Origin: an uncultured virus (IMG/VR IMGVR_UViG_3300044633_000831)
Lineage: Duplodnaviria > Heunggongvirae > Uroviricota > Caudoviricetes
IMG/VR virus record: IMGVR_UViG_3300044633_000831
Direction: 5' to 3' (one strand)
DNA length: 64,000 bases
The notes beneath the pieces are model-generated. The model did not search any database and was not told the origin of the DNA. It saw only the letters and a program-made list of their open reading frames with translations. The position numbers and the translations under genes were made by a program. Each line of letters starts with the position of its first letter. Position 1 is the stretch's first letter. Below are positions 8,430 through 59,685 of the stretch, in pieces.

Positions 8430-8437
8430 ATAGATAT

Positions 8438-8674
8438 ATGATACTACGAGAACTTTTTTACATTGACCCTAACACAAGACATGTTGCAAGCGATATGCGG
8501 TATAATCCAAATGATGATAAATCGTTAATGCAGCGGTCAGATACGCGCAAGACACGGTTGTCTCTCAGACAAATTAACGAATTACGTAAGAGCAGCGAAG
8601 CTCATATTTTAGAACAAGAGGTTGAATTAGCATTTGTTCATTCAATGTATTCAACACCGCCCCCGGCGGCATAA
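8438..8674 (+). CDS. Small head-module hypothetical protein
   Basis: 78-aa ORF between portal and scaffold; ATAAATA immediately upstream. Confidence 0.7.
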   Translation: MILRELFYIDPNTRHVASDMRYNPNDDKSLMQRSDTRKTRLSLRQINELRKSSEAHILEQEVELAFVHSMYSTPPPAA

Positions 8675-8786
8675 ATAATTTCTAAAATATTAAAAAACCA
8701 CCGGTTTGACCCCATATTTACGTTCTTTTTTATAAGTAGTGTAAATATAAGACAGCCTTGTATAAAATTTATCACAGGAGATTAAC

Positions 8787-12626: not shown

Positions 12627-13199
12627 ATGACTACACAATATTATCATCCTAAAATAACTATCGAATATAGAGAACACACTGATTTAATTCAACCTTTAGT
12701 TGAGTGGAATATCAACGGCACATTAACACCAGACAATCCTATTACTAGTAGACAACCACTTCATACAGTTAGTGGACTATGGATGGAAAAATTCCTTAGT
12801 CATACTACTGAATTATGGTTTTCTAAATTTGATATTCCTGATGCAGGATTGAATGTAATTGGTATAGAATTGTATTTAGATGTACATCGACTTTCAAGAA
12901 TTGAAGATTTACGCATACAACTTAGACTCAACGGTGAATATATTGGTGATAATATGGCTAGTCCTGTTGATCCAGTACAGAGTAATATGTATACAGGTGA
13001 AAACAGCCCATTAATTCCTATCATTGGCAATACAAATGTATACGGAAGTGCTGATAACCAATGGGGAACTACCTTAACAAGTGCAGATGTTGCTAATGAG
13101 TCATTTGGTGTTGCAATTAGTTTTAGAAGCAATCAAGTTTATCCGCATCGTGATTTAGTTATTGTAAATCAGATAGGCGTAGGTATCACCTACGGATAA
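12627..13199 (+). CDS. Hypothetical virion protein (beta-rich)
   Basis: 190-aa ORF after the capsid gene; GTAAATA at 12616-12622. Confidence 0.7.
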   Translation: MTTQYYHPKITIEYREHTDLIQPLVEWNINGTLTPDNPITSRQPLHTVSGLWMEKFLSHTTELWFSKFDIPDAGLNVIGIELYLDVHRLSRIEDLRIQLRLNGEYIGDNMASPVDPVQSNMYTGENSPLIPIIGNTNVYGSADNQWGTTLTSADVANESFGVAISFRSNQVYPHRDLVIVNQIGVGITYG

Positions 13200-13202
13200 A
13201 TA

Positions 13203-13276
13203 CTTTGTCAAATAAGTGCCGTAATTGCGGACTTATGCAGTGACCCACTGCGTATGACATAAAACGTCAAAAGGAG
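13203..13276 (+). promoter_or_regulatory. Candidate structured 5' leader RNA (three-way junction) after late promoter GGATAAATACTTT
   Basis: TGTCA/TGACA, ATAAGT/ACTTAT, CCGT/GCGG and GCAGTG/CACTGC pairings. Confidence 0.55.
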
Positions 13277-13283
13277 AAATCAA

Positions 13284-14234
13284 ATGGGACGTCCATTAAA
13301 TAAAAAATATTTTGGTAACCGCAACGTCGGTTCAATATCAACAATTGCTGACGATGGTATCGTTGGTAAAGGTGTAGCTAGCATTCCAGTAACAGCTGCT
13401 AGTTCATATACAGTTCGCCCAACTGTAACATTAACAGGCGCACCAGACTTATTAAACAGTGTAGCTGCTACTGCAACTATCACATCACAAGTTAACACTG
13501 TTAGTTCTTTTGTAGGCGGCACAAATTACAGTCAAGGTGATACATTTACTATTGGTAACGGTACTATTTTTACAGTTGCAACTGTTAATGGTTCTGGTGT
13601 AATTCAAACACTTAACGTTACTAACGGCGGTACATTCCTTTATGCAGATGGTGCATTAGCTACTGGTGCTCGCACAACTTCTATTATTAGTGCAACTAAC
13701 CCATTAGCTACTGGTGCAACTGTTACATTAACATATAAAGCTAAAGAAGTTTTAATTACTGACGCTGGTTCAGGTTATTCAACAACTGTACCAACTGCAA
13801 CTGCAACACAATCTGTAACATTAGGTACTGTTGTTATGACAAGCCCGGTTGGAAATACTGCAGTTACAGGTACTGCTGCTAACCCAGATCCAGGTATCAT
13901 TGCATATGCATTTACTGGTTCAAGCTCTAAACAAGCTGATATCGTTAAACAAGTTGCAAAAGATCGTTACAAAGTTAATACATCTGACACAAGTGGAACT
14001 CCTGTTGTTGCTCAATTAAAATCTTCTGCAGCTACTGCGTTAGGCGAAATGACTATTAATGCAACCGATAGTGCAAACGGCACATATTGGGTTGTTAAAT
14101 TAACTAGCCATAAAGCAACAATCTATCCTAACACCGGTACACAATTTCCATTAGTTAACAGTCAACCACAAGTAGTACAGTGGACTTTTAGTACACCTAC
14201 TGTAGGTGTATCTGTAAAAATCGATAACGCTTAA
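13284..14234 (+). CDS. Abundant virion structural protein (T/S/G-rich; possible head decoration or fibre)
   Basis: 316 aa with its own promoter, strong AAGGAG RBS and own terminator; capsid-like codon bias. Confidence 0.7.
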   Translation: MGRPLNKKYFGNRNVGSISTIADDGIVGKGVASIPVTAASSYTVRPTVTLTGAPDLLNSVAATATITSQVNTVSSFVGGTNYSQGDTFTIGNGTIFTVATVNGSGVIQTLNVTNGGTFLYADGALATGARTTSIISATNPLATGATVTLTYKAKEVLITDAGSGYSTTVPTATATQSVTLGTVVMTSPVGNTAVTGTAANPDPGIIAYAFTGSSSKQADIVKQVAKDRYKVNTSDTSGTPVVAQLKSSAATALGEMTINATDSANGTYWVVKLTSHKATIYPNTGTQFPLVNSQPQVVQWTFSTPTVGVSVKIDNA

Positions 14235-15703: not shown

Positions 15704-16732
15704 ATGAGATATTTACGTCAGCAAGTTTTAAATCGTAGAGCCCCATGGGATCAAAGATTATATGTAGACATGACTAATAGTGTTGTTATGACTACTACAA
15801 ACAACGTAACATTACCATCTGGTACTACTGCAGAACGACCCGTAGCACCTATAAACGGTATGATGCGATACAATACTGACATAGTAACAGGTGGTGAATT
15901 AGAAGTTTATCAATCTGGTACTTGGCGTAGTTTGAGATTTAAAGAACCTACACTAATTACACAGCAAAGTTTAGGTGCAGGAGACAGTCTTAATTTATAT
16001 TTTGGACCATTATCGCCTGCTCCGGTAACTACTGTACAAAGTGGAATTACTTGGGATGTAACTCAAATGGCTAAACATATTTTAGTTGTTGTTGAAAATG
16101 TTCTTCAGCTATCAAATACTAATTATACAATTGTACAAAATCCAACTATTGGCGCTGGAACTTATACGCCAAAATTAAGTTTTGCTGCACCATTAGGTTC
16201 AACAACTTTGTATTTTAATAGTCATGTATTAGGCGGAAACGCAACTTGGTCAACAAGTGTTGCAACTCTTGAATTTACAGCGTTAACACAAACACCATTT
16301 GCAGTTGGGTCTTCTATTGTAGTAACTGGATATATGCCAACTGCATATAACGGAACATTTACCGTTACTTCGTCAACTACTAGTTCAGTTAGTTATGCAT
16401 TAGCAGTGTCAAATCCAGGAACATCAACAGTATCTGGACAAATTAAAAGTGCAGATGCAATTTACACCTCATTAGATATTACAGGTGCAACGATCAACGG
16501 ACACGCTAATATACCTAATGGTACAACTATTGTTTCATCAGTATCTGATGCAAATACAGACGCGTTAATTAGTGCAGTGATTAGTAATGCAACCACTACT
16601 AGTACTATTGCAGTGAACACACAACTTACAATTTCTGAAAGTATACAGTCACCAATTGGATATTATTTAAAGTTTAATTCACCTGTGCCATTAGGAAAAG
16701 TAGTTACAGTCTTACACGGCTTTGACAAGTAA
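15704..16732 (+). CDS. Virion structural / fibre protein
   Basis: LPSGTTAERP...GMMRYNT motif shared with other fibres in the window. Confidence 0.7.
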   Translation: MRYLRQQVLNRRAPWDQRLYVDMTNSVVMTTTNNVTLPSGTTAERPVAPINGMMRYNTDIVTGGELEVYQSGTWRSLRFKEPTLITQQSLGAGDSLNLYFGPLSPAPVTTVQSGITWDVTQMAKHILVVVENVLQLSNTNYTIVQNPTIGAGTYTPKLSFAAPLGSTTLYFNSHVLGGNATWSTSVATLEFTALTQTPFAVGSSIVVTGYMPTAYNGTFTVTSSTTSSVSYALAVSNPGTSTVSGQIKSADAIYTSLDITGATINGHANIPNGTTIVSSVSDANTDALISAVISNATTTSTIAVNTQLTISESIQSPIGYYLKFNSPVPLGKVVTVLHGFDK

Positions 16733-16745
16733 TTAAGGAATTGTT

Positions 16746-19700
16746 ATGGGTATTGAAATGGGTAGAGTAAGCGGACCGCTTCTTTCGGAAAACTTATTAA
16801 GAAACGGTGAAGATTTAGCGTTTGAAACAAACTTACTGTATCTAGATGTTAATAACAACAAAATTGGCATTAAAAACGATGCACCAACACGACAATTGTC
16901 GGTTGCAGATGCACGAACATCTTACTTAGTTGTTGATACACAAGCTGATATTGCTAACTTTTCAATACTTACAAATAAGATTCAAAATCCTCTCGGAACG
17001 ATTTACTTACGTCCAAATCAAACTACTGATCCTACAATTAAAGCACCTGAACTTCAGACTGCTAACCTTAGTTTTACTAATCAAAAAATAGAAAATCTTA
17101 CAGTTGATAGTAACATTGAACTTAATCCTAACGGTACCGGAATAGTAAAATTTACAACTTCAACTGTAAATATTGACGGTACACTTCACGCAACTGGTGA
17201 TGTTACGTGGGACGGTACTATTACATTTGGTAATAACAATCTTGATAGCGTAACATTTAATACTGATATTACAAGTAGTATAATACCAGATAATAGTACA
17301 TACGGGTTAGGATCGTTAAGTAAATATTGGCAAACTTTGTACACACGCAACGTTACTGCAACTAATATAACATCATCGTCTGATATTACAATTAATAGTA
17401 TTAATCTAGCGTTATCTTCTGGTAAGACAATTTACGTATCAACTACAGGTAATGACACATTATCTGGTATGCACGCCCATGCTCCTTTTAAAACGATAAA
17501 AGCAGCACTAGCAATCGCAACAGTAGGTGACGAAGTTGTTATCTTTCCTGGAACATATACCGAAATATTCCCATTAACAATTCCTCTAGGAGTTAGTGTC
17601 CGTGGGATGAGTATTCGTGCAGTTGTTATTAAACCAACGATTGCTACAAACAACAAAGATGCATTTTTATTAAATGGTGATACTACTGTTTCTTTCTTAA
17701 CAATTCAAGACTACTTCTTTGATATTGTTAATAATACCGGATACGCATTTAGATTTGCTAACAATTTTAAATCATTAGTTAAAAGTCCATATATCCAAAA
17801 TGTTACAATAATTTCTAAAGGTTCAGTAACTCCAACGAACGATCCGTTAGGATTTAATCAAGGGGATGCTGGTGCCGGCATATTAGTTGACAGTACTGAT
17901 GCAGATTTATCCGGTAACATTGTTCCTTCATTACTATGTTACGCAGTTACGTTAATTACACCAAATCAAGATTCTATAGTTGCAAAAAATAATGTTAGGG
18001 TTGAATGGTTAAACTCGTTTACCTATTATGCTAAACGAGGTAGTTACTTAACTAATGGTGCAGAGTTTAGAAGTATTAACAGCGCAAATATATACGGTAC
18101 ATACGGTGTAGTTGCAGACGGAACAAATACAAGAGGTTATCTAACTGGACATAATTTTAGCTATGTTGGATCTGGTAACATCTCAAGCAACGATAAATCA
18201 AATGTATTTCAAGAAAATGAAATTGTTGCAACCAACGATGCAAGAATCTTTTACGATAGTATGGATCATAAAGGCGATTTTCGTGTAGGTGATATATTTT
18301 ATGTTAACCAAGAAACTGGCCAAGTTGTGTTTAACGCACAACATATTGACTTTGGAGCAACCGGCGGACTAGTTTTTGAAACAGAGTATGGTGTTACAAA
18401 CATCAATATGACTGCAATTCAAACTGGAAACATTCGCATACACGATAATGACATTGATTCATTAGTTGGACCTGTTAATTTTTTAGCTGCATCAACTTCT
18501 ACTTATCTTAATACTAATGTATATGTTACTGGGTTATTAGATGTAACTGGGGAAACAAATGTTAAAGGAAATGTATTCTTAGGTAATGAAGTATTAGATA
18601 CTTTAACTATATTTCCAAGACTGACTCAAACTTTTAAACCAAAAACTACCAGTACTTATACATTAGGCACAAGCGATGTTTCGTGGAAAACTGCATTCCT
18701 AACAGGTCTTAATGTTGATAATGTTACCCAAATAACAAATAATACAATATCAACAATATCAACTGATACTGATTTAAGATTAGTAGCTGCAGGTACAGGA
18801 AAAATTCAGATTTCATCAACTGATGTTGCAGTATCTAACAACTTAACTGCAGTAGGAACTACTACTATCGATGGCGATACATCGTTAAGAAATGTTAACA
18901 TTTCTGGATTAGTCGAATTAACTGGAGACATAAATCAAACAGGAAATATTAGGTTAACTGGTACCTTACACAATACAGACAATTTAATAATAACCGGATC
19001 TACCTCGTATTTACGATCTAATGGTGTTAAAATACTTAACAACCAAATTTACACTAACACATCTGGAGATACGTTATCATTATCTGCTAACGGAACAGGC
19101 GGCGTAGTATTTGATGATAAGATAAAATTTACTAACACAACTATTAGTAATAGATGGTCGATTGCAACTACTAATCTACAAAAGAGCATTGTACTTACTC
19201 CGTCGGGTACTGGTCTTACTGTAATAAATTCTACAGAATATCTAAAATTACCTTACAGTAACGAAACTACTAATTACTTGTCAGCTGTTGGACAAATTAG
19301 ACATAATAGTACAACTAATCTATACGAAGGATATAATATTCCTGATGGTTTAGAAAGTTTTACTAATTTGTATGATACTGATCGTAACACATATATTACT
19401 CCTGAATTAACCCCGGGCGCAAATGACAATACACTTAGATTTGGAATTAATAATACAGTAGTTGCTGAAATTAATTCATCTCGTTTATTTTCTAATTTAT
19501 TAGAAATAGACGATATTCATATTTTAAATAACACTATTACAACTGCATTACCAAATACAGATTTCTTTTTAACACCAAACGGTTCATCAACATCAATTAA
19601 TGTTAATAATTTAGTATTTAAACCTAATAACATAATGCTTAACACCAATCAAGTGTTAACAATGCAAGGAACATCAGCAGGATATTTTAAATTTGGTGGA

Positions 19701-19904
19701 ACATTTGGGTTAGTAATTCCAATAGGTGACAACAGTCAGCGACGGGTAGATCCAGAAATTGGCGAAACACGATTTAATACAGAAATACAGATATGGGAAG
19801 TATTTAACGGAACAATTTGGGACTCAGCTATTGGTTCTGCATCATTTGCAACATCAGACGAGGTAGACGATATTATGAACACATGGGCCATTATACTCGG
19901 TTAA
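16746..19904 (+). CDS. Large fibre/spike protein with a beta-helix (pectin-lyase-like, DUF1565-type) domain; paralog of 20016
   Basis: GRVSGPLL.NL.R.G.DLAFET N-terminus, YVS..G.D...G....PF.TIK.AL, SPYIQNV, repeated NGTG spacers. Confidence 0.75.
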   Translation: MGIEMGRVSGPLLSENLLRNGEDLAFETNLLYLDVNNNKIGIKNDAPTRQLSVADARTSYLVVDTQADIANFSILTNKIQNPLGTIYLRPNQTTDPTIKAPELQTANLSFTNQKIENLTVDSNIELNPNGTGIVKFTTSTVNIDGTLHATGDVTWDGTITFGNNNLDSVTFNTDITSSIIPDNSTYGLGSLSKYWQTLYTRNVTATNITSSSDITINSINLALSSGKTIYVSTTGNDTLSGMHAHAPFKTIKAALAIATVGDEVVIFPGTYTEIFPLTIPLGVSVRGMSIRAVVIKPTIATNNKDAFLLNGDTTVSFLTIQDYFFDIVNNTGYAFRFANNFKSLVKSPYIQNVTIISKGSVTPTNDPLGFNQGDAGAGILVDSTDADLSGNIVPSLLCYAVTLITPNQDSIVAKNNVRVEWLNSFTYYAKRGSYLTNGAEFRSINSANIYGTYGVVADGTNTRGYLTGHNFSYVGSGNISSNDKSNVFQENEIVATNDARIFYDSMDHKGDFRVGDIFYVNQETGQVVFNAQHIDFGATGGLVFETEYGVTNINMTAIQTGNIRIHDNDIDSLVGPVNFLAASTSTYLNTNVYVTGLLDVTGETNVKGNVFLGNEVLDTLTIFPRLTQTFKPKTTSTYTLGTSDVSWKTAFLTGLNVDNVTQITNNTISTISTDTDLRLVAAGTGKIQISSTDVAVSNNLTAVGTTTIDGDTSLRNVNISGLVELTGDINQTGNIRLTGTLHNTDNLIITGSTSYLRSNGVKILNNQIYTNTSGDTLSLSANGTGGVVFDDKIKFTNTTISNRWSIATTNLQKSIVLTPSGTGLTVINSTEYLKLPYSNETTNYLSAVGQIRHNSTTNLYEGYNIPDGLESFTNLYDTDRNTYITPELTPGANDNTLRFGINNTVVAEINSSRLFSNLLEIDDIHILNNTITTALPNTDFFLTPNGSSTSINVNNLVFKPNNIMLNTNQVLTMQGTSAGYFKFGGTFGLVIPIGDNSQRRVDPEIGETRFNTEIQIWEVFNGTIWDSAIGSASFATSDEVDDIMNTWAIILG

Positions 19905-19913
19905 GGATAAATA

Positions 19914-20010
19914 CTTTTACTGCTGGGATAAGACCAAAAATCCCACGAGACGAAACTGTGGTAAACCCGCAATGTAAGGTGGTTAGCCGTGAAACGCGGT
20001 GGTTAAGGAG
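19914..20010 (+). promoter_or_regulatory. Candidate structured 5' leader / ncRNA after late promoter GGATAAATACTTT
   Basis: GC-rich intergenic region with TTAC-TGC-TGGG/CCC-GCA-GTAA, CCAC/GTGG and a GAAA-tetraloop hairpin next to the RBS. Confidence 0.55.
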
Positions 20011-20015
20011 AGTAT

Positions 20016-23000
20016 ATGGCTGTTGGTCGAATTTCTGGTCCGCTCTTAAAAGCAAACCTTCTTCGCGACGGTGTGAATTTAGCTTTTGAGACCGACTTAT
20101 TATTTTTAGATGTAGTAAACGGGCGGATAGGCATTAAGACAGCATCGCCACAATACACACTTGACGTTAATGGTACAACTCGTACTACAAATTTAGAAAC
20201 AACAACTCAAGCTAATATTGCGTCATTTACTATTAATAATAATATTATTGCTAGTAGCAACAGTATTATTAGTTTAGAACCATCTGGTACAAATCCTGTT
20301 GTATATCAAGGTAAATTAATCGTTGATAACAACATACAGATTTCATCAAACATTATACAAGCAACAACAACTGACTCTAATTTAGAAATTAAAACTAATG
20401 GATCAGGTCAAGTAAATATTAATTCAAATGTATTAGTAACTGGTAATGTACACGCTACCGGAACAATTACTGCCGACGGTGACATCATATTAGGTGATGC
20501 TAACACTGATAGCGTTACGTTTAACGCTGATATTACAAGTAATATTAATCCTGATCAAACAAATACATACGACTTAGGTAGTAATCCAACAACTGGCGGA
20601 CAAGAATGGGGCACCAGCTACATTAGTAATATCCAAACTACTAATATTACTGCTGATACATTAAGTGTTAATGGCATTGACTTAATCTTACCTCAAGGTA
20701 ACATATTTTATGTTTCGGTTAACGGTAATGATACTAATGCAGGCGTTCATGAAAATAATCCGTTTGCATCAATAAAACATGCGTTATCAGTAGCAACTGC
20801 AGGTACTACTGTTTACATCTATTCCGGTACTTACACTGAGATATTCCCATTAACTATTCCAGTAGGTGTAACAATCAAAGGTGCAGGTCTTCGATCGGTA
20901 ACTGTTCAACCAACAGTCGGAACAATCGATAACGATGCATTTTTACTAAACGGCGAAACTACAATTGAAGATTTATCTATCGTTGGTTACAGATTTAATA
21001 GTACTAACAATACCGGATATGCATTTAGATTTGCATCTAACTTTTTAGTTTCATCTCGTAGTCCGTACATAAGAAATGTTTCAGTTATTACTAAAGGTTC
21101 TACAACAAGTAGCACTGATCCATATGGATACGACAGTAACGATGCAGGTAAAGGTGCGTTCTTTGATGGAAGTATTGCAAACTCTGCAAGTAAGGAAGTT
21201 ACTGCATTATTTAATTCTGTCACATTTATCACTCCAAATCAAGAAACTCTTGTTGCAACTAATGGTGTTAGGATTGAATGGTTAAATTCATTTACATATT
21301 TTGCCGATAAAGGGATATATGCATATTCGGGTACAACTGGGTTTGCAGGTATAGGCAAAACACGATTAAAAATTAACAATAAAACAGGTACATGGAATGT
21401 AGGTGATACTATTACTTACTATGATACCAACGGCACTACGGTACTTGCAACCGGAGTGATTGATAGTTTTGATGGTAATTTTGTAAACTTAGTAGGCAAG
21501 CAGTCTGGATTTCAAACAATTACAGATAGAATACCAAAAGCAGTGTTTGCAAACGGAAATGCTAAGATTTCTACATTAGAATATAAATTTGGTAATTCAA
21601 GTTTAAATTTAGATGGTACTGGAGACTTTCTTAATGTTCCTAGTCAACCTGATTTTAATTTTAGCAACGGTAATTTTACAATTGAACTATGGGTGTATCA
21701 AACAGTTAATTCTGGAGCAACTCAAATTTTAATTGATATGCGTACTAGTACTCCGCAATCTGCAATCGTGCTATCATTAAATTCTATTAATCAAGTTGCA
21801 TTTACTGTTAATGGTACTGCAGTAATCACATCTACTGATGTAGTTGCAGTGAATACGTGGACACATGTTGCATTATCACGCGCCGGTACATCATCTAAAA
21901 TATTTATTAACGGTGTGCAGTCAGGGTCTACTTATACAGACACTACTGTGTATATTCAAAGTCCTGTACGCATAGGTGCTCGGTTTGATAACACATTAGG
22001 ATTTACTGGATATATTGACGGTGTTAGAATTTGTAAAGGTATTGCAAGGTACACTGGTACATTTGTAGTTCCTAGTTCAGAATCATTAGGCGATTTATCT
22101 ACAGTATTATTATTACATTTTGATGGAAGTAACAACTCGACTACTATTTTAGATAATGGTATTACGTTCCAGGACATTAGATCTTCAGCAGGTGGAACTG
22201 CAAGTATTATTAACTTTGCAGACTATAGCGATTTTGGTGTTGAATTACGATCAATTGGATCTGCAAATATATACGGTACTTACGGCGTATACGCTGACGG
22301 TGACGGAGTTGTACTGTTCTTAACTAGTCACAACTTTTCATATACTGGTTCAGGGAAAGACTCATCAAATACTCCACATAATGAAGGACCTGAAAATCCT
22401 GATGTTGATCCATACGAGATTGTAAAACTTAACAATGCTCAAGTTTATTACACGACTATTAATGAAGAAGGTGATTTTAGAGTTGGCGATAGCTTCTACA
22501 TTGATCAGCATAGTGGTGATGTGTTATTCAACAATCAAAATTTAACAATTACAAGTACTACCGGTGTATCTTTTAGTGACGGAACACATACTACATCTAT
22601 TACATCGCAAGATATTACTACTGGTAATATTAAAATTAGCGGTAACACGATTGAAAGTTTGTCAGGCAATATAAATGTAACTGCAGCAAACGGTGCAATT
22701 AATTTACAAAATAATACATATGTAACTGGTAATTTAGATGTTACTGGTGATGTTACTATTGGCGGAAACATTACAATTGGTGATCAATCTACTGATACTG
22801 TTACATTTACTGCTGGAATCACAAGTAATATTGTTCCAGCAACTACTGCTTTTTATGATTTAGGTACTACTAATTTACGATGGAACAATGCATTTTTAAG
22901 TCGTGCAGAAATAGATGGGTTAGTAATTGACAACAACACTATTAGCACAACATTAAACAATGATGATTTAACATTAACTGCAAATGGTAGCGGACAAGTT

Positions 23001-24281
23001 TATGTACCGTCAAATAATGTACAGATTGATCAAAATTTAACAGTTACTCAAAATTTAACAGTTACGACTGGTACTACTTATTTACAAGATGTTGGAATTA
23101 CTGGTGATATTACTCAAACTGGTGATATTACCCAAACTGGAGACATTAGTACAAGTGGTACAATTACAGTAACTGGAAATATTACAAGCACAGGTGACTT
23201 AGATTTACCAGAAATTACAATATCAAATAACTCAATTTACACTAATGTAACAGATACTGATTTAGAAATTTTTGGAACAGGTACTGGCGGGGTTATTGTT
23301 GAAGGATTAAAAATTACCGATAACGGTATTGCTAGTATCGCAACTAACTCAGGTATAACATTAACTCCACAAGGAACCGGTGGAGTTATAATTGATAGTA
23401 CTACTAGTTTAAAAATTCCAGTTGGTACTACATTAGAAAGACCGTTATTACCTACTAACGGAATGATAAGGTATAATACTACATTATCTAGATATGAAAG
23501 TTATACAGTAAAAGTTCCTGGATCTATACTTTCGGCAGTACAATATGACACCATTGCTGGATTTATTGGACAAACTGATATTGTAATTATCGGTGGAAAT
23601 AATGATGCACGTTGCAGTATTAGTATAACTGGTATTACAATTACAACTCCTGGAACTGGATATACTACAGGCATCGCTACAATCGGCGGCGGAACACGAA
23701 TAGTAATAACGGTTGACGGATTTTGGTTACAACTTAGCGGAGTTATAGATAATAGTGGTAATACTCGTATATTAGCAGAATCATCACCTGGTGCTAACGA
23801 TAACATATTATATTTTTATGCTAATAATCATTTAACAGCAACTATTGACAACGAAAAATTATTTACAGAAAGGTTTCAAACTAATAATTTAGATATTAAT
23901 GGTAATACCATTACTACGTTAGTAGCTGATACTGATATTAATATTACTGCATCAGGAACCGGCGGAGTACATCTTGGGAATTTACGAATTTCTAATGATA
24001 CAATAACAAATGTTTTAGCAAATGCAGTTACTGAATTTGTTAATAGCGGCACTGGTTATGTTAAATTTGCAGGGTCAGGCGGAATAGTTATCCCATCAGG
24101 TGATACCGGATCAACTCGTCCACCAAGTCCTGAAACTGGTATGATACGATTTAATACTTCGTATCAGGTTGTTGAAATTTTTAACGGAGTAACATGGGGT
24201 AGTGTTGCAGGTAATACAGGTGGCGTTACAATTACAGCTGCAAACGAAATAGGATTAGCATCCGCATTAATTTTTGGATAA
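20016..24281 (+). CDS. Large fibre/spike protein with beta-helix and inserted LamG/ConA-like lectin domain
   Basis: Paralog of 16746; FTIELWVY..WTHVAL.R...F.GYIDGVRI.KG.ARY LamG signature at about 21530-22155. Confidence 0.8.
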   Translation: MAVGRISGPLLKANLLRDGVNLAFETDLLFLDVVNGRIGIKTASPQYTLDVNGTTRTTNLETTTQANIASFTINNNIIASSNSIISLEPSGTNPVVYQGKLIVDNNIQISSNIIQATTTDSNLEIKTNGSGQVNINSNVLVTGNVHATGTITADGDIILGDANTDSVTFNADITSNINPDQTNTYDLGSNPTTGGQEWGTSYISNIQTTNITADTLSVNGIDLILPQGNIFYVSVNGNDTNAGVHENNPFASIKHALSVATAGTTVYIYSGTYTEIFPLTIPVGVTIKGAGLRSVTVQPTVGTIDNDAFLLNGETTIEDLSIVGYRFNSTNNTGYAFRFASNFLVSSRSPYIRNVSVITKGSTTSSTDPYGYDSNDAGKGAFFDGSIANSASKEVTALFNSVTFITPNQETLVATNGVRIEWLNSFTYFADKGIYAYSGTTGFAGIGKTRLKINNKTGTWNVGDTITYYDTNGTTVLATGVIDSFDGNFVNLVGKQSGFQTITDRIPKAVFANGNAKISTLEYKFGNSSLNLDGTGDFLNVPSQPDFNFSNGNFTIELWVYQTVNSGATQILIDMRTSTPQSAIVLSLNSINQVAFTVNGTAVITSTDVVAVNTWTHVALSRAGTSSKIFINGVQSGSTYTDTTVYIQSPVRIGARFDNTLGFTGYIDGVRICKGIARYTGTFVVPSSESLGDLSTVLLLHFDGSNNSTTILDNGITFQDIRSSAGGTASIINFADYSDFGVELRSIGSANIYGTYGVYADGDGVVLFLTSHNFSYTGSGKDSSNTPHNEGPENPDVDPYEIVKLNNAQVYYTTINEEGDFRVGDSFYIDQHSGDVLFNNQNLTITSTTGVSFSDGTHTTSITSQDITTGNIKISGNTIESLSGNINVTAANGAINLQNNTYVTGNLDVTGDVTIGGNITIGDQSTDTVTFTAGITSNIVPATTAFYDLGTTNLRWNNAFLSRAEIDGLVIDNNTISTTLNNDDLTLTANGSGQVYVPSNNVQIDQNLTVTQNLTVTTGTTYLQDVGITGDITQTGDITQTGDISTSGTITVTGNITSTGDLDLPEITISNNSIYTNVTDTDLEIFGTGTGGVIVEGLKITDNGIASIATNSGITLTPQGTGGVIIDSTTSLKIPVGTTLERPLLPTNGMIRYNTTLSRYESYTVKVPGSILSAVQYDTIAGFIGQTDIVIIGGNNDARCSISITGITITTPGTGYTTGIATIGGGTRIVITVDGFWLQLSGVIDNSGNTRILAESSPGANDNILYFYANNHLTATIDNEKLFTERFQTNNLDINGNTITTLVADTDINITASGTGGVHLGNLRISNDTITNVLANAVTEFVNSGTGYVKFAGSGGIVIPSGDTGSTRPPSPETGMIRFNTSYQVVEIFNGVTWGSVAGNTGGVTITAANEIGLASALIFG

Positions 24282-59377: not shown

Positions 59378-59390
59378 CGGGGGTAGAGAT

Positions 59391-59639
59391 ATGGCACATT
59401 ATGCAGTAATCGAAAACGGCAATGTTGTAAACACTGTTGAAGCAGATGCAGAATATGCATTACAAAACGGATGGGTAGCGGCTGAAAAAGAAGTGTGTAT
59501 TGGTTGGGTTTATTTGGATGGAAACTTTATAGATGAAAGACCAATTGAAGCACTAATCGATGATACGCCTGTTCAACCAACTAAAGAAGAACTTATTGCA
59601 CAGATTGAACTTTTAACTAAGCAAATTCAAGCACTGTGA
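59391..59639 (+). CDS. Small fibre-associated protein (paralog of the 58079 N-terminus)
   Basis: MAHYAVIENG.VVN.V...IGW.Y.DG.F plus a C-terminal coiled coil. Confidence 0.65.
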   Translation: MAHYAVIENGNVVNTVEADAEYALQNGWVAAEKEVCIGWVYLDGNFIDERPIEALIDDTPVQPTKEELIAQIELLTKQIQAL

Positions 59640-59685
59640 TAGTTATAAATAGTTTATTATTTGACTAATCATACAAGGAAACTAA

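Follow-up and report, generated by a model that had tools for sequence, protein, structure and literature searches.

The nearest known system to the RNA leader described here is the pseudoknot in the gene 32 leader of phages T4, T2, and RB69, an autogenous translational operator of the gene for a single-stranded-DNA-binding protein. There, a tract that is rich in A+U, lacks structure, and carries UUAA(A) repeats runs from the knot over the ribosome-binding site, and gp32 spreads along it. The alpha-operon (S4) leader pseudoknot is a protein-stabilized operator at the initiation region that blocks or traps the 30S subunit. Small H-type knots by the Shine-Dalgarno (SD) sequence in 5' leaders are also found in the preQ1-I/II, SAM-II/V, and guanidine-III riboswitches, with preQ1-II carrying a hairpin in loop 3. 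The E. coli rpsO (S15) leader is a pseudoknotted operator at the initiation region as well, stabilized by protein to block or trap 30S, and is mentioned in the relevant part of PMC3014915. That part describes the gene 32 pseudoknot as perhaps the sole viral pseudoknot with a role in translational autoregulation. Little is known of how T4-type structural genes are controlled post-transcriptionally, beyond the RegA, gene 32, and gene 43 operators and a small number of hairpins at start regions that the same review describes. In T4 genes e, soc, and 49 and in I-TevI, a hairpin hides part of the initiation region, and a TATAAATA late promoter lies just upstream; in the e/soc/49 type the late promoter is inside the 5' strand of the helix, and late transcripts are made without the inhibitory helix (same part of PMC3014915). 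The baseplate wedge gene 25 of T4 has a conserved start-region mRNA structure, a hairpin between the SD sequence and the AUG that shortens a 27-nt spacing and activates translation (section on gene 25 in PMC3014915).

We analyzed a locus in a 64-kb stretch of DNA from an uncultured virus (64,000 nucleotides, referred to here as the window). The window holds the late structural module of a T4-like myovirus, with genes for a baseplate hub, portal, prohead protease, major head protein, fibre-assembly proteins, and giant baseplate-wedge and fibre proteins. Many metagenome runs from lake water contain near-identical DNA. Related contigs are as long as 353 kb, with an estimated completeness of 98%, indicating that these are giant phages. 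Two adjacent genes flank the region of interest, as follows.

16746-19904, + strand: upstream paralog P0001, 1052 aa, baseplate-wedge-like (phrog_13163, E 1.3e-81)
20016-24281, + strand: downstream paralog P0002, 1421 aa, baseplate-wedge-like, with an inserted Laminin_G_3 domain

Both proteins match PHROG 'baseplate wedge subunit' families, and a search of solved structures and NCBIfam gave no name for either. They are paralogs, as the preliminary description had proposed, with 48% identity over the first 442 aa and collinearity up to a shared C-terminal domain; the Laminin_G_3 domain is extra in P0002 relative to P0001. P0001 is without a structured leader, and the gap to the gene before it is only 13 nt. 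The SD sequence of P0001 lies in the loop of a small hairpin (window 16733-16748, AAUU-AAGG-AAUU). In a distant clade of homologues (L061-L064, ~1470-1503), the SD sequence of the first paralog is likewise in a hairpin, ACUGC-AAGGA-GCAGU, with a compensatory variant in L062 (ACUAC...GUAGU).

Between the P0001 stop codon (19902-19904) and the P0002 ATG (20016) lies a gap of 111 nt (19905-20015). The earlier claims that this gap measures 111 bp, is unusually long, and is GC-rich were borne out, and the promoter named at its start matches a late-promoter motif. Of the 39 gaps in the window only four are larger, and within the same-strand run 13284-42939 it ranks first; its GC content is 0.45 to 0.48 versus about 0.25 to 0.40 in the flanks. 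It contains two signals.

19907-19913, + strand: ATAAATA, T4-type late-promoter motif, assigned from invariance, position, and literature
20005-20012, + strand: Shine-Dalgarno sequence AAGGAGAG

The gap opens with GATAAATA at 19906-19913, and GGATAAATAC contains TAAATA (19908-19913). The T4-type late promoter is given as TATAAATA/NATAAATA in the parts of PMC2984593 and PMC3014915 that concern it. The gap motif has this form, (T/N)ATAAATA shortly upstream of a late gene. TAAATA is invariant in all 68 aligned leaders described below and recurs ~10 to 45 nt upstream of many other genes in the window, including many structural genes. As a 7-mer, the motif is not enriched in the AT-rich window overall (25 found versus 27.7 expected), and the argument for a promoter therefore rests on position and not on count. 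From motif and position, transcription is inferred to start a few bases downstream of TAAATA. The SD sequence ends 3 to 8 nt before the AUG, with no hairpin between them. Contigs of relatives (<90% identity) in RNA libraries, from three metatranscriptome runs belonging to two studies, include the leader, and one of 2570 nt reaches from the end of the upstream gene through the leader into the downstream gene; as contigs, they cannot show transcription, strand, or ends.

Other gaps in the window also hold TAAATA. A second, putative long late leader occupies 13197-13283, with TAAATA at 13197-13202, then ~80 nt, and then ORF 13284-14234. Its predicted fold, in which an outer stem encloses two hairpins and which includes GCAGUG-ACC-CACUGC, has an MFE of -21.8 kcal/mol (z -2.29, 5 of 200 shuffles as good). 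Larger gene-free gaps are found at 8430-8786 (357 nt), 59378-59685 (308 nt), and 1-478 (478 nt), each with TAAATA near the downstream gene.

A homologue search with the first 240 residues of P0002 yielded 64 loci on viral contigs, with 35 to 100% identity. The full leader was found directly upstream of the P0002 homologue at 59 of the 64. At one further locus, L027, the leader is truncated (~1330-1500): its 5' half, with the promoter motif, P1, and S1/S2a, is gone, while P3, S2b, P4, and the SD sequence are kept (helices are defined below). At the searched site, the remaining four loci (L061-L064) show nothing more than a promoter and a short hairpin at the SD sequence. These contigs form the distant clade, in which the first paralog is leaderless and a covariance model built from the leaders (R1) finds the leader ~3.4 kb further downstream, before the second paralog. 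A pattern scan of viral contigs with a 16-mer added loci, with at least 120 matches listed. Among these listed matches, about half are unrelated conserved phage coding sequence with the same 16-mer (L065, L066, L072, and ~60 others), and we take the sharing of this 16-mer between the leader core and unrelated coding sequence as coincidence. In all, at least 112 instances of the leader, at least 68 of them distinct, were collected from uncultured phage contigs, plus the more distant clade.

The distinct set of 68 was realigned with R1 (alignment A2). R1 recovers 68 of 68 distinct leaders at 58 to 121 bits; it has a single match in the 64-kb window, and five contigs of 210 to 353 kb each have one strong match. 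The leader is thus present as one copy per phage contig, and its location is constant, between the late-promoter motif and the SD sequence of the same gene. Its sequence is kept where the N terminus of the encoded protein is only 35 to 50% identical, and ~45 nt are nearly invariant.

The leader is absent from the RNA catalogue searched (Rfam 15), in agreement with the earlier statement that no known Rfam family was recognized. There were no matches at the gathering score in the 64-kb window. At E<=10, the gap region gave only a chance miRNA match outside the leader, and 20 diverse loci gave only two unrelated weak matches, also outside the leaders. By these comparisons the leader fits no named RNA family. 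A pattern search of 185,579 genomes of bacteria and archaea gave 17 matches, none of which had the leader architecture when inspected by eye; four had weak R1 scores (19 to 28 bits). Among phage isolates, blastn of the region gave no match, and tblastn of the N terminus gave only five weak partial matches (Melnitz and CRP-603 phages). The nearest record, G001, lacks the leader, but this record is a 20-kb fragment and is uninformative. No description of the leader was found in the portions searched of the literature on novel structured phage and metagenome RNAs and on baseplate-linked RNA motifs.

The predicted fold has the following parts.

19924-19945, + strand: P1 hairpin, UGGGAU (19924-19929) paired with AUCCCA (19940-19945), loop AAGACCAAAA
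19946-19955, + strand: joiner between P1 and the pseudoknot, CGAGACGAAA, variable in sequence and usually ending in AA or GA
19957-19971, + strand: 5' part of the pseudoknot, consisting of S1a UGU (19957-19959), L1 GGUA (19960-19963), S2a AACCC (19964-19968), and S1b GCA (19969-19971)
19972-19978, + strand: purine-rich pseudoknot loop L3, AUGUAAG
19979-19984, + strand: pseudoknot strand S2b, with G19979 paired to C19968, U19980 bulged, and GGUU (19981-19984) paired to AACC (19964-19967)
19987-19999, + strand: P4 hairpin, CCGUG AAA CGCGG

As a nested structure, the whole leader has a minimum free energy no better than that of shuffles (z +0.38; other strand, z +0.29), and the evidence for the fold is therefore comparative and not thermodynamic. 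A MAFFT alignment (A1) was useless for P1, with 61.6% paired, and was replaced by the R1-based A2. A2 and the counts made from it are fitted to the nested helices of the model, which favours P1 and P4, whereas the pseudoknot and the loop-to-gene pairs were not in the model. For the whole structure, 94.5% of cells are paired versus 79.3% in shuffles. Covariation, which the preliminary description had named as a check on homologous leaders, is 0.380 versus 0.118 in shuffles, with none of 500 shuffles reaching the observed value, and versus 0.04 to 0.10 with slid partners. Four predicted parts are supported by covariation, namely, P1, the pseudoknot, P4, and a loop-to-gene pairing.

P1 corresponds to the GGGAT/ATCCC pairing that had been offered as one of two alternatives. 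All 68 distinct leaders fold a hairpin between the promoter and the core (mean z -2.9; 54 of 68 below -2), although the stem sequences are unrelated among versions. Compensatory changes occur in all eight modelled pairs, with four to six pair types each in A2. In the window P1 starts 10 nt after TAAATA (19913 to 19924), and the motif lies upstream of P1 in 68 of 68.

The core is best modelled as an H-type pseudoknot with S1 (C)UGU:GCA, L1 GGU(A), and S2 AACCN:N'(U)GGUU. In a mutual-information scan, the seemingly bulged N of CC[N]GC proved to be paired to a base that lies two positions ahead of GGUU (MI 1.07). This N:N' pair is C-G in 45 leaders, A-U in 21, and G-C in 2 and is thus canonical in 68 of 68; all five S2 pairs are paired in all 68, and in L045 the second S2 pair is changed from A-U to G-C. 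The outer pair of S1 is U-A in 67 of 68 leaders and A-U in one, and it is C-G in the distant clade. The distant clade also gains C-G and U.G pairs at the far end of S2, and its N:N' is an A.C mismatch (two distinct sequences). In other phages, L3 carries one or two inserted hairpins (P3), some of them capped by GCAA or UUCG. The P4 hairpin had been proposed with a GAAA tetraloop (CCGT-GAAA-CGCGG); as CCGTG-AAA-CGCGG it covaries: C-G is replaced by G-C in 10 of 68 leaders, and the whole stem is replaced in three lineages, L118 (UUGGGU GUGA UACCCAA), L045, and the distant clade (GGGA/GGCA CAGGA UCCC/UGCC). P4 ends 6 to 12 nt before the SD sequence and ~20 nt before the start codon. The bases on either side of P4 (A2 columns 124 and 138, window 19986 and 20000) covary in a non-Watson-Crick manner (A/G 42, U/U 13, G/U 6; MI 0.75), and they may form a noncanonical closing pair. 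The stem bases of S1/S2 and P2 are almost frozen even though they are free to covary.

The other helices that had been drawn for the gap did not survive comparison. The long-range helices TTAC-TGC/GCA-GTAA and CCAC/GTGG are 71.0% paired versus 71.2% in shuffles, and 449 of 500 shuffles reach the observed value. The two copies of GGTGGTTA described as flanking P4 are present in the window, but the second copy is found only in the subfamily of the window, in 5 of 68 distinct leaders. Overall, about half of the base pairs proposed earlier were wrong, namely, the long-range helices and a GACCA:TGGTT pairing considered below; P1 and P4 were right.

A further helix joins the loop of P1 to the start of P0002.

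19932-19937, + strand: GACCAA in the P1 loop, 5' strand of the loop-to-gene helix
20023-20028, + strand: UUGGUC, nt +8 to +13, codons 3 to 5 (V-G-R), 3' strand of the loop-to-gene helix

GACCAA is the exact complement of UUGGUC, and codons 3 to 5 encode I/V-G-R among homologues. In the first set, the two leaders with a GUCC loop were the only two with the glycine codon GGA. As a test of the predicted pairing, viral contigs were searched for starts with a non-GGU glycine codon, ignoring the loop, with at least 120 matches listed. Among the listed matches, eight carry the leader; seven of seven in the main class combine GGA with a GUCC loop, and the eighth has GGG and belongs to a subclass without a complementary loop. 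Across 75 rows, the combinations are GACC with GGU in 52, GUCC with GGA in 7, GGCC with GGU in 4, and GAUC with GGU in 1, and GUCC with GGU does not occur. The helix exceeds 500 of 500 shuffles in both the percentage of cells that are paired and the number of cells with changes on both sides. Three joint changes of loop and codon are seen on the best tree, although the well-supported branches force only one origin of GUCC/GGA and not three. The third base of Gly codon 4 has 0.20 bits, the lowest third-base entropy of codons 2 to 11, compared with 1.11 bits for the next Gly codon. We read this as a synonymous position constrained by RNA pairing.

The loop GACCA had instead been thought to pair with a TGGTT within the leader. 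The bases of that pairing are invariant or changed on one side only, TGGTT pairs with AACC(N) in the pseudoknot, and the GUCC lineages and L045 (GGCU) contradict it; the covarying partner of GACCAA is UUGGUC in the gene. A complementary P1 loop is missing in 10 of 75 rows, which keep the pseudoknot and P4, indicating that the loop-to-gene helix is not needed for core function. This subclass comprises L057, L081, L083, L090, L106, L118, L124, L139, and L164 (and L318). In the nine of these leaders that were checked, the upstream gene is not a paralog and ends in ...GFD..., like the window ORF 15704-16732, indicating that the loop-to-gene helix goes with the tandem-paralog layout.

An additional helix between the SD region and the gene was considered and did not pass its control.

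20042-20047, + strand: GCUCUU (+27 to +32), candidate helix P5 with GGAGAG(U/C) of the SD region, complementary in most homologues

P5 (SD:+27..+32) is 84.0% paired versus 83.2% in shuffles (47/500) and is kept as a possibility only. Codons 9 to 11 (CCG CUC UUA, window 20040-20048), which are complementary to the SD region, show little synonymous change, with CUC in 57 of 64 despite the AT-rich phage.

Taken together, the comparison shows a predicted fold that is sense-strand, single-copy, and doubly knotted and runs from just after the late-promoter motif to codon 5; as judged by homologous loci, the leader RNA is real, strongly conserved, and knotted. Read from the other strand, the conserved U.G of S1 and the numerous G.U pairs of P1 would turn into A.C mismatches, indicating that the element is sense-strand specific. 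The same G.U pairs, mismatched on the opposite strand, and the preservation of helices through compensatory changes make it most improbable that the region is merely a DNA-level signal (an extended promoter or protein-binding sites) or a small hidden ORF with no RNA structure. The late-promoter motif does fall within the conserved block, and some versions have an ATG-TAA or a short ATG-started frame in L3. However, such short frames are missing from the long-insert class and from ACG variants and have no SD sequence, and the pattern of variation is not codon-like.

The preliminary description had left a choice between a cis-regulatory RNA and a small noncoding RNA. The latter, as a free-standing molecule, is unlikely because the fold enters the coding sequence and is not followed by a terminator. 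A compact fold with a pseudoknot, invariant bases at the junctions, and a place between two phage genes would suit a self-cleaving ribozyme that splits read-through transcripts into their two cistrons. We nevertheless consider such a ribozyme very unlikely: with a promoter motif at the 5' edge, no processing is needed to give a monocistronic 5' end, the fold continues into the gene, and there was no Rfam ribozyme match at E<=10 (hammerhead, twister, twister-sister, pistol, hatchet, HDV-like, and others). A cis-regulatory RNA, on the other hand, fits the comparative evidence of sense-strand specificity, single copy, position from promoter to SD sequence, and pairing to codons 3 to 5.

We place about an even chance on the leader being a cis-acting element of translational control, a function suggested by the comparative pattern. 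It would form the 5' leader of a late mRNA for the second of two paralogous baseplate-wedge genes in an uncultured lake-water T4-like giant phage. The transcript would first form the P1 hairpin, then the H-type pseudoknot, whose purine-rich L3 tolerates inserted hairpins, and then P4. In most members, the P1 loop would pair with codons 3 to 5, closing the leader and the start region into one knotted domain. P4 and the knot would sit at the 5' edge of the ribosome landing site with the P1 loop covering +8 to +13, and the loop-to-gene helix would keep part of the 30S landing site shut. At 6 bp, this helix may be too weak alone to block the ribosome. We infer that the leader acts in cis on translation initiation; it probably controls the amount of the second baseplate protein that is made, and the earlier proposal that it controls spike stoichiometry is plausible as a putative role.

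Part of the same evidence could be explained by an mRNA stabilizer or fixed throttle that needs no effector, the 5' hairpin and knot blocking 5'-end-dependent decay and fixing the translation rate relative to the upstream paralog. P1 begins ~10 nt after the promoter motif and so would lie near the transcript 5' end, and bacterial mRNAs such as ompA are stabilized by 5' stem-loops; the leader also separates two paralogs whose required amounts may differ. Protection needs structure, however, and not ~45 nearly invariant nt across phages with 35 to 50% identical proteins, and the almost frozen bases of the P2/S1/S2 stems point to specific recognition. We therefore regard an effector-free role as unlikely. 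The ~45 nearly invariant nt, which include stem bases free to covary, favour specific recognition, by a protein or ligand, over mere stability.

In the translational control that we favour, the pseudoknot-P4 core beside the ribosome-binding site would be the part recognized by an effector, most likely a protein, for example, an unassembled virion protein or a phage repressor. The core could instead be a metabolite or ion aptamer, as in a small-molecule riboswitch, with the ligand setting the opening of the start region. Invariant joining nucleotides, an H-type knot with a purine-rich third loop, and a hairpin of variable length at one fixed site are typical of aptamers; several riboswitch classes are H-type pseudoknots beside the SD sequence, and riboswitches occur in phages. 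Against this, each phage has a single copy of the leader, invariably ahead of one structural gene, and the leader is not seen ahead of metabolic or transport genes. The 3' strand of S2 is not the SD sequence, alternative expression-platform pairings are without support, and no Rfam riboswitch matched at E<=10 in the window or the 20 diverse loci. A riboswitch therefore seems somewhat less likely still than the effector-free role. Similarly doubtful, as a specific elaboration of translational control, is a candidate assembly- or metabolite-sensing riboregulator in which the core is an aptamer (e.g., for unassembled wedge protein) that sets the P1 loop on the look-alike UGGUU or on codons 3 to 5, switching synthesis of the second paralog during virion assembly.

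The leader is an uncatalogued RNA, supported by covariation, that would combine a pseudoknot with a leader-to-coding-sequence helix in one copy before one baseplate gene of many uncultured giant phages from aquatic habitats. Should it prove to sense a protein or ligand, it would represent a new class of regulatory RNA and a handle on how the numbers of virion parts are set. Compared with the riboswitches built on H-type knots, the leader differs in its virion-protein gene context, in a knot whose 3' strand is not the SD sequence, and in having no Rfam match. The rpsO and alpha-operon leaders belong to cellular ribosomal-protein operons, and their knots include the SD sequence or the AUG, whereas the knot here ends >20 nt upstream; their Rfam models gave no match in the window or the 20 loci. 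As in the hairpins of T4 genes e, soc, and 49 and I-TevI, a helix here would hide part of the initiation region, and a late-promoter motif lies just upstream. Unlike in the e/soc/49 type, the promoter motif is upstream of the whole fold (68 of 68), so late transcripts should carry the fold, and it is +8 to +13 that would be masked, by a loop-to-strand helix with its partner ~90 nt away. The T4 gene 25 hairpin also concerns the start region of a baseplate gene, as here, but our leader has an ordinary SD-AUG spacing that contains no hairpin. In contrast to the gene 32 operator, the hairpin P4 and a spacer of 6 to 12 nt lie between the knot and the SD sequence, there is no UUAA(A) tract, a 5' hairpin pairs into the gene, and the downstream gene is baseplate-wedge-like and not gene 32. 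The likeness to the gene 32 operator is one of kind only, with no sequence homology, and lies in the H-type pseudoknot that both leaders have on their 5' side.
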